A stretch of DNA of 64,000 nucleotides. Origin: Microcoleus sp. GTDB lineage: Bacteria; Cyanobacteriota; Cyanobacteriia; Cyanobacteriales; Microcoleaceae. The position numbers were made by a program, and so were the translations under genes. The stretch covers positions 96,001-160,000 of the forward strand of contig JAYFMW010000006.1 of NCBI GenBank assembly GCA_042408215.1, written 5' to 3'. Below the pieces are notes generated by a model. That model was not told the DNA's origin. It made no database searches and saw only the letters and a program-made list of their open reading frames with translations. Below are positions 1,794-7,145 of the stretch, piece after piece. Position 1 is the stretch's first letter. Every line of letters starts with the position of its first letter.

Positions 1794-3272
1794 CTATTTT
1801 TGCAATTGACCAATCATATCTAATGCTTTTTGAGCATCTGCGGCCATTCCTTGATCCCTAAATAAACGAGCCGCTTGCTGCAAATCTGCGATCGCCCCTT
1901 GTCTATCTCCCATTCTCACCAAGGTAATTCCTCGGTTAGCAAAAGCCTTTGCATAATTGGGATTGAGTTGAATTGCTTGGGTGTAATCAGCTAAGGCTGA
2001 GCGATCGTTCTTGATGCGAAATAGCGCCAATCCTCTGTTAAAATAAGTATTAGCTCCACCGGGATTAATTTGCAGCGCTTGATTGAAATCGTCGATCGCC
2101 CCTTTTTGATCGCCTAATTCTGAAAGCGCCAATCCTCGGTTGTTGTAAGCCCGCGCAAAGGTTCTATCCTGACGGATGACTTGAGTATAATCGGCGATCG
2201 CCCCTGGTTTATCTCCCATCGCCGACAAAACCAGCCCCCGATTGTAGTAAGCGTCAACATAACTGGCATTTAGGGCGATCGCTTTGCTATAATCAGCGAT
2301 ACTTTTTGGCATTTGTCTCAGATCAAAATAAGCCAGTCCCCGATAGAAATAAGCTTCCGCATAATCCGATTGAGTTTGAATCGCTTGGGTAAAATCCGCC
2401 ACAGCACCTGACAAATCTCCCTTGTCAAACCGACTTAAACCCCGAACGTAATAAGTTTTAGCATCTTGCGGATTGTTCAGTTTCAGAGGTGCATTAGTGG
2501 CGGTGGAAGTATTCACCAAAAGAGCAGAACGATTTAACCCAGCTTCCGACAGTTTAGCGAGAAAAGTGTTAATAGGAATTGCAGAATTAAATCCTGTTTT
2601 AGTGATTGACTCTACAGATGCTCCTGTATCATTTGTCGAAAAATCTAGTTCGCCTTCTCCATGAATCCCCACTACGCGCCCTTCCCCATCAAATACAGGC
2701 CCTCCACTCATTCCTTTTTGAGTGACAGCACTATAACGCAATGTATAACCGCGCTTGTGATTCGGAGAACGACTGGTAACAAAACCCTGTGTAAACTCAG
2801 GATTCTGCTGATTTCTAGATCTATTATTTGGATAGCCAAGCACAAAAATTTGTGTGCCGCTCTCGGCTTGTACAGAATCGCCTAAAGTGACAACTCGATA
2901 AGTTTCTGTGCTGTTAAATGTTACGACTGCTAAATCCAGTTCCCGATCGGTTTTTTGTAATGGCATCACACGAGTTACTTGATGTTCTTTTCCCGTATAA
3001 GTGCGAATTTTATAGGTAACTTGACTATTTGGAACAACGTGTTTAGCTGTCAAAACCGTGTAAGTCGTGCCTTGTTTGGCAATAATAAATCCAGTCCCGC
3101 TACGACTATCTGTTCCATTAATCTGAACGGTGACAGATTCAGCTAATTTGGCAATTTCTTGGGGAGTTTTTGCGAAAACGGGTGCTGCTGCAAAGATGAC
3201 TATTCCTGCTACCGTTACTGTTCCTGCTAGGATGCTGGTGAGGGAATCAAACCGCGAATAACTCCTATTCAT
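1794..3272 (-). CDS. Trypsin-like serine protease with C-terminal TPR repeats
   Basis: Signal-like N-terminus; LTAKHV, DLAVV and GMSGGP triad motifs; repeated AYxNRG TPR units. Confidence 0.92.
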   Translation of the reverse strand: MNRSYSRFDSLTSILAGTVTVAGIVIFAAAPVFAKTPQEIAKLAESVTVQINGTDSRSGTGFIIAKQGTTYTVLTAKHVVPNSQVTYKIRTYTGKEHQVTRVMPLQKTDRELDLAVVTFNSTETYRVVTLGDSVQAESGTQIFVLGYPNNRSRNQQNPEFTQGFVTSRSPNHKRGYTLRYSAVTQKGMSGGPVFDGEGRVVGIHGEGELDFSTNDTGASVESITKTGFNSAIPINTFLAKLSEAGLNRSALLVNTSTATNAPLKLNNPQDAKTYYVRGLSRFDKGDLSGAVADFTQAIQTQSDYAEAYFYRGLAYFDLRQMPKSIADYSKAIALNASYVDAYYNRGLVLSAMGDKPGAIADYTQVIRQDRTFARAYNNRGLALSELGDQKGAIDDFNQALQINPGGANTYFNRGLALFRIKNDRSALADYTQAIQLNPNYAKAFANRGITLVRMGDRQGAIADLQQAARLFRDQGMAADAQKALDMIGQLQK

Positions 3273-3584
3273 AGTTGATTGCTGAAGACTAAGATTTTTT
3301 ATACTCCGAATATTATAGATGAAAATGAAATGTCCGAAAACCAGAAATGCTGGAGGTTTTCAGACGATCGCGATTTTTCTGACATTTCGTACATTTCGTA
3401 TATTTCCGCTACCCGACTTCTTTAAGAAGTCGGGGCTCTGGGTATTCTGTTTTTTATTGCATCTTCCTTCTTTCTTCTTCCAACTTCGGTCTTCCTTCCC
3501 GGCGTTACATCCGTTACATCCGTGGAGCGAATCCGTTGCCGAACTTCTGGCTTCTGCTATACAATTGTTGATTTTTCAATCGGT

Positions 3585-3956
3585 TCAGTAGACCATCTGT
3601 TTTGACTCTATTTCTAGCAAGCGCAGCAGTCTTTCATCGCCTCTGGCTTTGGCGGCTTGCAGTCGGCGATCGAGAATATTGCAGATATTGGCCCGGTGGA
3701 CTTTCACTATATCCTCAACTGTTAGAGCTGATCTCACCGCTGCTACATTCTCATCGGCTTTTGGAGTTCGGTTGGTGCAATCGGGCCGATCGCGATCGCG
3801 TTGCTGCCAATCTTGGGCTTGTTCAGGGCCCCGAAGGTGTCTGGGATAACGATAGTTCCAGTTGTGACCCCGATATTTGCCCGCGACTTCACCTTCGATC
3901 AGATCGACTGTGGGAATGTCGTAGTCGTAGTTAGAACCGCGATAAGAGAGTTTCAT
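3585..3956 (-). CDS. DUF4278 family protein
   Basis: MKLSYRG..Y and GKYRG motifs; C-terminal LDRRLQAAKARGDERLLRLLE. Confidence 0.8.
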   Translation of the reverse strand: MKLSYRGSNYDYDIPTVDLIEGEVAGKYRGHNWNYRYPRHLRGPEQAQDWQQRDRDRPDCTNRTPKADENVAAVRSALTVEDIVKVHRANICNILDRRLQAAKARGDERLLRLLEIESKQMVY

Positions 3957-4105
3957 ATTTTTTGCTCCTGATATTTATCTAAAAATGGTAGTCTGGTCAG
4001 GCCAGATTTTGCCTGGTAAAAACGTTTTAGTTTCTGTATTATATTTTACCATTTGTTTAAATAACCAGGCCAGTTAAAAAAATTAATATTTAGAGGGAGA
4101 CGGCA

Positions 4106-4131
4106 GGAAAAAACCCGCCAGAGCGGGTTTA
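4106..4131 (-). terminator. Intrinsic terminator downstream of the BON gene
   Basis: Minus strand aaacccgc-tctg-gcgggttt hairpin followed by a T run. Confidence 0.65.
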
Positions 4132-4222
4132 GAGGGTGAAGCTGAGGGTAGAAGTCGCACAAGCACCGATGAGAGTTGCACTCCAAACGAGTTGGGTGAG
4201 GGACTCCCACGCTCCCCAGCAA

Positions 4223-4567
4223 CTAGCCGACTGTCACCTGATCGGTTTCCACGCCAGTTGCGCCCTCTTCAGCAGAGGCGATCGCCACCAACTTGTCGAG
4301 AATTTCCTGGCTGGGAACCTGGCCCTTGAGAACCACAGTACCGCTGAGTTGAGCCACCCATACAGTTTCAATATCAGCAACTTCTGAATCGCCGTCAAAA
4401 GCCAAAGCAACGCGCTTCGCCAGGCCGCTTTGATCAAAATTACCGTCAGGGCCCACTTTCGCAGGAGCAATTGATTGCGACTCCGCCGCCTGTTGCACTA
4501 CTTGTGCCATCGCTTGTGCCTGGGGTTCAGGCTTTTCGAGTCCGAATAGTCTTTGAAACCAACCCAT
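4223..4567 (-). CDS. BON-domain (phospholipid-binding) protein
   Basis: DQSGLAKRVALAFD...VVLKGQVPS...GATGVETDQV; likely start MGWFQRLFG. Confidence 0.85.
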   Translation of the reverse strand: MGWFQRLFGLEKPEPQAQAMAQVVQQAAESQSIAPAKVGPDGNFDQSGLAKRVALAFDGDSEVADIETVWVAQLSGTVVLKGQVPSQEILDKLVAIASAEEGATGVETDQVTVG

Positions 4568-4740
4568 CGTAGTAGATTCTCCTGACAATACACTTTTTAC
4601 AAGATAGCTCTAGAATTCCCAAAGACTGGTAATTGTTGCAAAACTCAGTGAAATTTCTGAAAATGTTTGGCCGTCAGGCTTTGATAATTCTTGAATCTCG
4701 AATCTTAAATCTCCTATGGTATTGTAAAACTTCATTAAGA

Positions 4741-4769
4741 TTGTAAGCATCAATAGACAATGGTAGTAT
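4741..4769 (+). promoter_or_regulatory. Sigma70-type promoter
   Basis: TTGTAA-N17-TAGTAT with an extended TG motif. Confidence 0.6.
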
Positions 4770-4774
4770 CATAT

Positions 4775-4985
4775 AGTCAGAAGGGTCGATTGATTAACGC
4801 CGATGTTAACGGGTCTTACAATATTATGCGAAAAGCAATCCCAAATGCCTTGTGCAATGGGATAGAGAGCTGCGTAGTTCAGCCTTAGAAGGGTCAATCC
4901 GCTCGAAGTGAAAGCGAAAGGGGAGGGACTTCATGCCTCCCACGGCACTGTAATAAATGACTATACTTTTACCAGCTATGTTGAT
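4775..4985 (+). ncRNA. Orphan tnpB 3'-end remnant, putative omegaRNA scaffold plus guide
   Basis: 4775-4888 translates as SQKGRLINADVNGSYNIMRKAIPNALCNGIESCVVQP* (TnpB RuvC-III C-terminus) with no upstream tnpB body; several hairpins follow; 3' boundary approximate. Confidence 0.55.
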
Positions 4986-5130
4986 GTGGCTATTTTATGT
5001 AGGGGACACCTAGTACCAGTCATCGACCTGTGCCAAATGATACAGGGGAGGCGGGCCAGCGCTTATATCAATTCCGGTTGCACCGGAATGATATACTGAA
5101 AGAGCATCAAGAATGCAATGAGGACAATTT

Positions 5131-6209
5131 ATGCCTAAACGCCTAAAGTTGGAACCCCATCAAACCCCGTCGGAGTTGTCTAAACTTGATCGTCAAGCAT
5201 CGGACCCAATTGAACGGACACGCTACCAAATAATTTGGCTCTTAGCAACTGGACGAGTTACTGAAGATGTCGCTTCGGTCACAGGTTACTGCCGTAACTC
5301 GATATACCGCTTAGTCCGTCGTTACAATCAATTAGGTGCTAATGGTTTGAAAGACAAACGTCATCAACATCCGGGTACTCAACCTTTACTCTCTGTTGTA
5401 GAACAAGCACAACTTTTGCAAACTTTACAAGCTCCTCCCGCTGATGGAGGATTATGGAACAGTCGTAAAGTTGCTGAGTGGATGAGTAATTTACTTGACC
5501 GTCGAGTTAGCGTACAAAGGGGTTGGGACTATCTACGCTCCTTGGAGTTTCGGTTACGGATACCCAGACCGGAACATGACCTCGCTGACCTTGAGGTCCA
5601 AGAAGCTTGGAAAAAAAACTACGAGCGCAAGCTAAACGAATTCAAAATCAGCATCCATTAGTAGCAGTAGAAGTATGGGGAATGGATGAGCATCGTCTGG
5701 GATTAAAGCCCATAATTCGGCGAGTCTGGGTAGGGTATGGGGAGCAGCCCATAGCCAACGTAAATTGGCGCTATCAATGGCTATGGTTATATGGTTTTGT
5801 ACACCCGTCAACGGGAGAAACATACTTTTGGATTCTCCCAAAAGTTAACATTGAGCTTTTTAACTTAGTTTTAGAAGACTTTGCCAGAGAATTTGGAGTA
5901 GGTAAAGATCAACACATCATCTTAGCTATTGACCAAGCTGGATGGCATACCAGTCCACAAGTTAGAGTCCCAGAAGGTCTACACTTGGAATTTCTGCCCT
6001 CCCATTCTCCCGAATTACAACCAGCAGAGCGTCTATGGCCGTTGGTAAATGAACCAATTGCCAATCGCTCATTTCAAAATCTTGATGAACTAGAGGAAGT
6101 GCTATTTCAGCGCTGTCAAGCTCTTCTCAAGCAACCTTCTTTGATTAAAGGGATTGCTTGTTTCCATTGGTGGCCAAAAACCAAAGCCATATCATTCCGG
6201 TGCAGTTAG
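5131..6209 (+). CDS. IS630 transposase, two ORFs joined by a -1 programmed frameshift
   Basis: HTH ORF 5131-5661 and DDE ORF 5607-6209 (MDEHR, DQAGWH, PAERLW); A8 slippery run at WKK, 5611-5618. Confidence 0.92.
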
Positions 6210-6982
6210 AGAGTCGATGGCAGAGTGTCCCCCACCATCTCTCCTACAAAACCGTGCTTGCGACTTTCACCGCACACGGCTCCTGAGTGATGTAATCCTG
6301 GTTATGGATACAGTACGATCGCATCACGAGATGATTTATACCGCTTGATAGTTTTCCTTTTACCCCTACATCCCACCATCAGATTTTTCTGTGGCATTAG
6401 GCTTTTAAAGGGTTACTCAGTCTCAATCTTTTACACCACCAGGCGCTGTCAGCAGATCTCTGCTATTACAGCAGAGCTTTAGCTTCTGCAACCATCCCTC
6501 ACACTCACAGCTTACGGCTAGCAACCTACTTATTTTTAAGGGCTGTGAGAGCTTTACTTCGTTCCGATTACACATTGGTTGAACATGACAGCGTAATGCT
6601 TTCCACCGGGTTTTTTGGGCAGTGCTGATAAGTCAATCCGATAATTGCTTATGCCCTATCCTTGCCTTTTGGCTTGGTCTATCAGCCATTTGACCATCTA
6701 TCATAACGGTGGTTCAGACACATTTTTGCTTTCGCTACGCATATGTTCTGGCTCGACAGCTACTCCATTTGGCTAAGAGTCTTTCTGCCTTTTATCCCCG
6801 CTTTATCCTGTTAGTTGCTACCTAACAAAATAGGGGATATGCTTTTACCGCTGCACCTGCGGACTGGGACTTGACTTAACGTCTCACCCAGAAGTGTAAT
6901 CAGTTATCACTAACTCGCAGCGGAGTCAGGCTAACCGTCCCTGGATAGGAGAACCTATCCATTTAGGCTAAACGAATCGCAC
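6205..6982 (-). ncRNA. ORF-less group II intron (778 nt, probably IIB)
   Basis: Minus strand starts GTGCG at 6982 and ends AAC at 6205; domain V gagccgtgtgcggtgaaagtcgcaagcacggttt (AGC triad, GAAA loop) at 6249-6282, then domain VI; removal restores the IS TIR exactly. Confidence 0.93.
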
Positions 6983-7145
6983 ACCGGAATTGATATTAGA
7001 TGCTCTATATGTAGCAGGACTTTAAGAAATTGGTATTACTCCGAGGGGGGTTCAGCCCCTGTAGGGGCTAGAAAATGTCTAATGCCCGTTAAGATGCCTT
7101 TATCTAAAAGGGTGGTTAGTCTAATACGGGCAGAGAGGTCAAAAT

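Follow-up and report, generated by a model that had tools for sequence, protein, structure and literature searches.

Protein-less mobile elements that retain an omegaRNA have been described among IS200/IS605 elements, as in the PATE-like elements of Geobacillus ISGst (PMC10055086), and standalone omegaRNAs of OMEGA loci have been shown to work in trans, with a role stated there to be unknown (PMC10691335). The locus described here resembles both in keeping two transposon ends and a predicted omegaRNA, in lacking a protein gene, and in needing a transposase and a nuclease in trans. It differs from PATE-like elements in that its parent encodes a serine recombinase rather than a Y1 transposase, its predicted promoter runs almost straight into the scaffold, and nine separate deletion lineages could be mapped. 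It would work like a PATE, while its ends are those of a serine-recombinase element.

The locus also shares features with the IS607 elements CboIStron, ISXfa1 and ISFba1: a serine-recombinase tnpA before tnpB (in the parent), absence of target duplication, a 4-letter target that has its last letters in common with the right end, and a ~150-nt scaffold whose final letters pair with a loop in a pseudoknot. A pseudoknot of this kind is required in ISXfa1 (bioRxiv 2023.08.09.552727) and in CboIStron (PMC13521648). IS607 integration is reviewed as taking place at GG and G-rich sites (PMC13565253), and the measured IS607 TAMs are TGGG, GGG, AGGAG and GAGGG. In contrast to the GG core and these G-rich TAMs, the family described here has GTAT, with AT or TAT as crossover core; it carries no intron, and its minis are natural, whereas the IS607 mini that has been tested with TnpB in trans was engineered. 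Neither natural IS607 minis nor a GTAT target was found in the literature searched, which included parts of PMC3542288 and PMC9956272 and in which the Greek-letter spelling of omegaRNA may be missed.

An internally deleted IS607-type element in many copies

The window is a 64,000-nucleotide stretch of a Microcoleus sp. contig (JAYFMW010000006.1, positions 96,001 to 160,000). In a BLAST search of window positions 4600-5130 against the organism's own genome, the segment 4719-4979 is matched many times in one piece and at other places in two pieces ~1.2 kb apart. Pairing 44 left-end with 39 right-end matches yielded 38 elements. Nineteen of these are short (minis): 17 measure 260-262 bp and the other two 272 and 283 bp. 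The longer ones comprise 18 of ~1.4 kb and a single one of 1.95 kb. The 19 minis occupy 17 sites, because two mini pairs have the same flanks; the 260-262-bp group, 91-100% alike, accounts for 15 of these sites. In the ~1.4-kb copies tnpB is the only gene, and its frame is open in 12 of the 18; the 1.95-kb copy, with the same ends, carries a Resolvase-domain tnpA (PF00239) followed by an open tnpB (PF01385/PF07282), for 13 open tnpB genes among the 19 longer copies. The copies start with GTAT and finish with CTAT, and their flanks are unrelated except for a purine bias at -1.

The window feature (Table 1) is an internally deleted copy of an IS607-type element at a GTAT site, and is almost certainly a 261-bp protein-less, non-autonomous derivative of such an element (serine recombinase plus TnpB), on the forward strand. 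Its closest long copy is 95% identical in DNA over 196 nt, and the window copy has one private change, at 4884. Rfam reported no family over the feature in a search of positions 3000-7000. The original prediction of a fixed, stand-alone RNA gene gives way to a multi-copy mobile element, of which the window copy is one ordinary insertion among many.

A second subfamily, with a TnpB about 52% identical and the same left-end start and CTAT end, is present in the genome as five long copies (G000:C12:30769, C16:16486, C28:303277, C5:404476 and C1:61968) and no minis.

Table 1. Features of the mini element in the window.
Feature	Position	Strand	Basis and remarks
Mini element	4719..4979	+	counted from target GTAT to right-end TAT; 38 paired genome copies
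Target site and predicted TAM, GTAT	4719..4722	+	last letters common with right end (crossover core AT or TAT)
Left end: transposase-binding region and predicted own promoter	4723..4787	+	matches left ends of full-length copies
Conserved -10 box TATCAT (family TAT(C/T)AT)	4767..4772	+	column counts, 73 left ends; predicted start near 4779
Deletion junction in 6-nt microhomology AGGGTC	4782..4787	+	left- and right-end alignments; AGGGTC common to left ends and tnpB 3' region
tnpB 3' remnant (RuvC-III region), without own start codon	4784..4888	+	translation; GRLINADVNGSYNIMRKAIPN...
Predicted omegaRNA scaffold, about 150 nt	4830..4979	+	covariation; 5' limit inferred from conservation
Helix 1	4838-4843/4858-4863	+	covaries across 22 sequences
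Helix 2	4869-4872/4880-4883	+	covaries across 22 sequences
Helix 3	4888-4904	+	covaries across 22 sequences; weakened haplotype in window copy
Helix 4	4921-4926/4936-4941	+	only in window copy's subfamily
Pseudoknot	4874-4878 with 4975-4979	+	covaries across 22 sequences
Predicted guide: flanking host DNA, start of decayed cheW-like gene	4980..4999	+	differs between copies

Target site and empty alleles

The letters of GTAT are kept in 73, 73, 72 and 73 of the 73 full-length left ends of the family. Clean empty sites for two other minis were found in relatives, where a single GTAT is followed directly by the downstream flank; the target is therefore GTAT, with a shared core of AT or TAT and no duplication beyond that core (L042, L044, L341). 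Empty-site searches for six other minis were clean for these two, gave a 3-letter difference for one and were uninformative for three, and the organism's own genome holds an empty site for one of the 38 elements. GTAT is atypical among the reviewed IS607 targets, and the absence of a GG crossover core leads us to file the family as an IS607-type variant, not a canonical member. By analogy with the IS607 papers, GTAT would also act as the TAM. An independent insertion of the same family (L043, G012:C564) again lies at GTAT, 11 bp from the site of a mini in the window's genome.

At the window site itself, the mini is absent from the orthologous position in the two closest relatives (G005 and G008), whose empty alleles carry 2 and 6 extra letters and are not clean pre-insertion states, and the insertion is found in none of the 12 loci that could be anchored among 14 other orthologous ones. 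The insertion lies in the start codon of a cheW-like gene that had already decayed and that is intact in a relative (L017, PF01584). The decayed gene spans 4978-5064, with the AT of its start codon supplied by the right end of the mini; after it, at 5065-6290, an IS630-like transposase is split over two frames, HTH and DDE_3, and a group II intron on the minus strand has its 3' end at 6208-6284, downstream of that transposase.

A predicted transposase promoter next to the tnpB remnant

A promoter of the form TTGTAA-N17-TAGTAT with an extended TG had been proposed for this locus. Its letters are present (TTGTAA at 4741-4746, a 17-nt spacer, TAGTAT at 4764-4769, TG before it), but the register is poorly conserved: the critical A of TAGTAT is kept in 39 and lost in 34 of the 73 left ends, and the whole has 8 of 12 consensus matches by hand count, below the scan threshold of 9, and is absent from the promoter-scan list. 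The conserved -10 box is instead TAT(C/T)AT at 4767-4772 (T in 73 of 73, A in 73 of 73, last T in 72 of 73), with a TG upstream in 34 of 73, and this register makes a start near 4779 more likely than the one near 4775 proposed before. Judged from these letters, the left end is a predicted promoter. It had been taken to be newly given to the RNA; the same sequence is the left end of full-length copies, and leads in autonomous copies into AGGAGG and the start of tnpA. The deletion puts the predicted start ~5 nt before the tnpB 3' remnant, which, as first described, has nothing of the gene upstream (4784-4888).

A predicted omegaRNA scaffold with a covarying fold

Like known omegaRNAs, the predicted RNA overlaps the 3' end of tnpB, finishes at the right end of the element, and adjoins a variable flank as guide. 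The hairpins originally noted are present at 4838-4863, 4869-4883 and 4921-4941, although the 210-nt strand as a whole folds no better than shuffled sequences (z = 0.66). The fold emerges at the level of the family. From 32 distant loci, six without the anchor motif, one that was cut and four others (two near-duplicates and two with insertions) were left out, giving 21 loci. Together with the window copy, these show 78.5% of cells paired in a structure of three helices and a pseudoknot, versus 64.4% in shuffled and 40-50% in slid alignments, with covariation counts inflated by kinship among the sequences and by motif-based end calls. The pseudoknot is 90% paired across the 22 sequences, one pair having 10 double changes and none broken, in counts that lean towards the model, since the right-end motif was picked after viewing the data and was reset by hand in 3 of the 21 loci; the right ends of several groups are supported by flank divergence between copies. 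Loop and end change together, as GTAGT-CTAT, GCCGT-CGGT, GCAGT-CTGT and GGAGT-CTCT. RNAalifold recovered helix 1 only from the alignment. Covarying stems with a loop-to-3'-end pseudoknot are therefore a property seen at family level; the window copy itself keeps helix 1 and the pseudoknot and has a weakened helix 3. The central idea of the original prediction, a TnpB omegaRNA scaffold placed behind a predicted promoter, without a protein and usable only in trans, is supported.

Across the order, the last letters of related elements are CTAT, CGGT, CTGT or CTCT, and the loop changes to match (L309-L337, L219-L222); this variety predicts several different targets and TAMs inside one TnpB clade. 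Within the scaffold, at 4848-4895, recurrent multi-letter variants common to minis and long copies create or extend short palindromes, a pattern as might be expected from template switching followed by gene conversion.

The guide and its predicted target

The 38 paired copies fix the right end at 4979, and the guide would run from 4980 onward. The stretch once read as the guide, 4961-4980, is up to 4979 the right end common to all copies, and its resemblance to sequence near the neighbouring genes (scores of 20 in 4030-4060 and 18 in 4580-4615) is reached by 15% and 44%, respectively, of 3000 random 1-kb genomic windows; the 4589-4607 stretch also occurs in relatives without the insertion. For the predicted guide starting at 4980, a search of the genome that allowed up to 3 mismatches over 16 nt found no GTAT-adjacent site, as was also the case for 33 of 40 random controls. 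The sole predicted target of this guide is the empty allele.

TldRs are guide-RNA repressors with a nuclease-dead TnpB. The order of promoter, scaffold and flank is that of an RNA gene, and here, as in TldR systems, the guide RNA could conceivably be encoded separately from an active nuclease; the locus was first read as a domesticated, trans-acting guide RNA that steers TnpB or a dead TldR to neighbouring promoters. We regard that reading as very improbable. Unlike a fixed locus whose guide matches a host promoter, this is a polymorphic insertion, empty at its site in the two closest relatives and found in none of the 12 anchored loci; both mobile ends are intact; the true guide has no target in the genome and the claimed matches are those of chance; and no catalytically stripped TnpB, as a TldR partner would be, occurs among the 13 open copies of this TnpB family.

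A sister mini (L025, G000:C6:340638-340897) sits in a multi-copy repeat, and the guide in its flank has 33 GTAT-adjacent genome matches with 1-3 mismatches, all of them mismatched at guide position 2, possibly through escape from self-cutting or as plain repeat variation.

TnpB and TnpA partners

All 13 open copies of TnpB have the D, a glycine at RuvC-II (LVIGKN), a shifted E and the final D, and none has a CxxC motif, so that the protein lacks a zinc finger. With its LVIGKN, later conserved E and both aspartates, it resembles in motifs the RIIr-5-type TnpB (glutamate-to-glycine in RuvC-II; PMC10691335) and TvTnpB, and the missing zinc finger sets it apart from them. It would fit the rearranged RuvC-II type of PMC10691335, and by analogy its clade may be active, a TnpB with such a rearranged site having been shown to cut DNA (PMC10530073). 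The shifted glutamate is accompanied by DLG at RuvC-I, not by the DPG of pro-Fanzor IS607 TnpB. The best relatives of the TnpB in the family described here are titled Microcoleus or Tychonema; structure searches found no solved structure for the single sequence, and only distant Cas12f/TnpB for the profile.

An intact TnpA of 199 aa is encoded in three relatives, whereas the only cognate tnpA found in the genome stops after residue 158, before the last helix, so excision may now be rare; in IS1535, the last-helix region of TnpA is needed for end pairing (PMC6188088). Copy number and empty sites suggest that minis were moved by the cognate TnpA, presumably excised and inserted by way of a double-stranded circle.

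Deletion lineages and retention of the scaffold

By pattern search, minis are present in 12 of 79 genomes of the genus and at 13 of 119 metagenome loci; across the order, 10 of 401 genomes gave pattern hits, four of which, from four other genera (L198, L205-L207), were discarded as chance. The minis fall into nine junction types, or deletion lineages, all of which keep 172-279 nt of the right end and hence the whole ~150-nt scaffold (N-gapped copies L050, L051 and L061 were excluded; L051, whose scaffold contains an N gap, appears to be 187 bp long and may truly have lost scaffold sequence). Under a rough null in which the length is held constant and the junction falls uniformly between minimal ends, with end lengths borrowed from another IS607, retention in nine of nine has P = 0.0007 (0.0001-0.009 over five settings), or about 0.006 by hand calculation if two lineages descend from the 260-bp one. 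In a clostridial IS607 the minimal ends for excision are 40 and 60 bp (bioRxiv 2023.11.20.567912), and 39 nt of the right end have been found to be enough, with the loop half of the pseudoknot dispensable (PMC13521648). Scaffold retention suggests that TnpB uses mini RNAs in trans to hold the minis in place, and we lean, with some reserve, towards the mini persisting as a selfish element through TnpB used in this way.

It is quite possible, though we would not call it probable, that the omegaRNA is a passenger in a mobile mini, its RNA unused and the right-hand 170-280 bp kept for other reasons, such as a need of the transposase, a hairpin bias on deletion ends, or a circle requirement of ~250 bp. 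The main junction is explained by microhomology, no mini without an assembly gap was found under 249 bp, and the promoter lies inside a left-end region likely needed by TnpA, which would keep it without selection on the RNA. The state of the scaffolds points the same way: of 17 distinct minis, 9 have a broken helix 1 and 9 a weakened helix 3, and only 5 have canonical helices throughout, a state found in 8 of 13 long copies with open tnpB and in 46 of 70 copies from relatives. These structure-breaking haplotypes are also exchanged at one and the same site from strain to strain. The broken helices would also fit a relaxation of selection once the transposase was lost. On the side of TnpB-aided persistence, the pseudoknot motifs are intact in 16 of 17 distinct minis in the genome and 27 of 29 elsewhere. 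A length rule alone, however, leaves unexplained why the extra DNA comes from the RNA side in nine of nine lineages, and a second deletion in the 272-bp lineage again stops before the scaffold.

A 378-383-bp lineage differs from a long relative by 11-14% in the scaffold and 20-27% upstream; we set this contrast aside as evidence of selection, since long copies are constrained in the scaffold too.

Minis might also spread partly in place, through recombination between copies that replaces long elements or swaps scaffold blocks without new transposition; this reading is compatible with either TnpB-aided persistence or an unused RNA, and we consider it improbable. Helix 1 and helix 3 haplotypes are found in every one of their four combinations, the haplotype differs between orthologous copies at 2 of the 3 sites compared, and one site is occupied in this genome by a 1411-bp frameshifted copy (L224, G000:C3:437038-438448) and in a metagenome contig by a 260-bp mini (L141), the two matching over 38 letters downstream and about 16 upstream. 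This is a single swap with a short upstream match, however, which independent insertion at a hot spot fits too, and an original insertion is still needed at each site.

RNA libraries

In contigs from 4 of 20 listed RNA runs, the mini junction is spanned in all four (from four studies), by contigs that run past both ends and in which RNA, DNA and read-through are not separable. Element contigs continue into the flanks of other copies; the window copy's own flanks are uncovered at 4618-4691 and almost so at 4988-5024, and the higher depth over the element fits its copy number.

Discussion

TnpB-aided persistence would operate as follows. Deletion between short homologies would have joined the left end, with the tnpA promoter, to the last 196 bp of the element, comprising omegaRNA and right end, and the serine-recombinase TnpA of an autonomous copy would have moved the resulting minis in trans. 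From the left-end promoter, an RNA of about 200 nt plus flank may be made, which TnpB from the 1.4-kb copies would trim and load; the complex would cut GTAT plus flank, a sequence that exists only once the mini has excised, and sister-chromosome recombination would then restore the mini. The RNA would thus serve the persistence of the element, not regulation in the host.

A broader proposal is speculative, and we offer it as doubtful in its entirety: cyanobacterial GTAT IS607-type elements may repeatedly shrink to RNA-only parasites, in which the deletion puts the transposase promoter on the scaffold, TnpA and the rearranged-site TnpB are borrowed from longer copies, and the whole scaffold is selected. 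Such minis would compete with long copies for TnpB and could replace them in place, and some of their guides would aim at other multi-copy repeats.

The family predicts an AT-rich GTAT TAM and a mapped scaffold of ~150 nt for a zinc-finger-less TnpB clade, against the G-rich IS607 rule. Since the minis form nine deletion lineages, have scaffolds that are intact or broken at orthologous sites and can be compared with empty alleles, they constitute a natural test of the role of standalone omegaRNAs.
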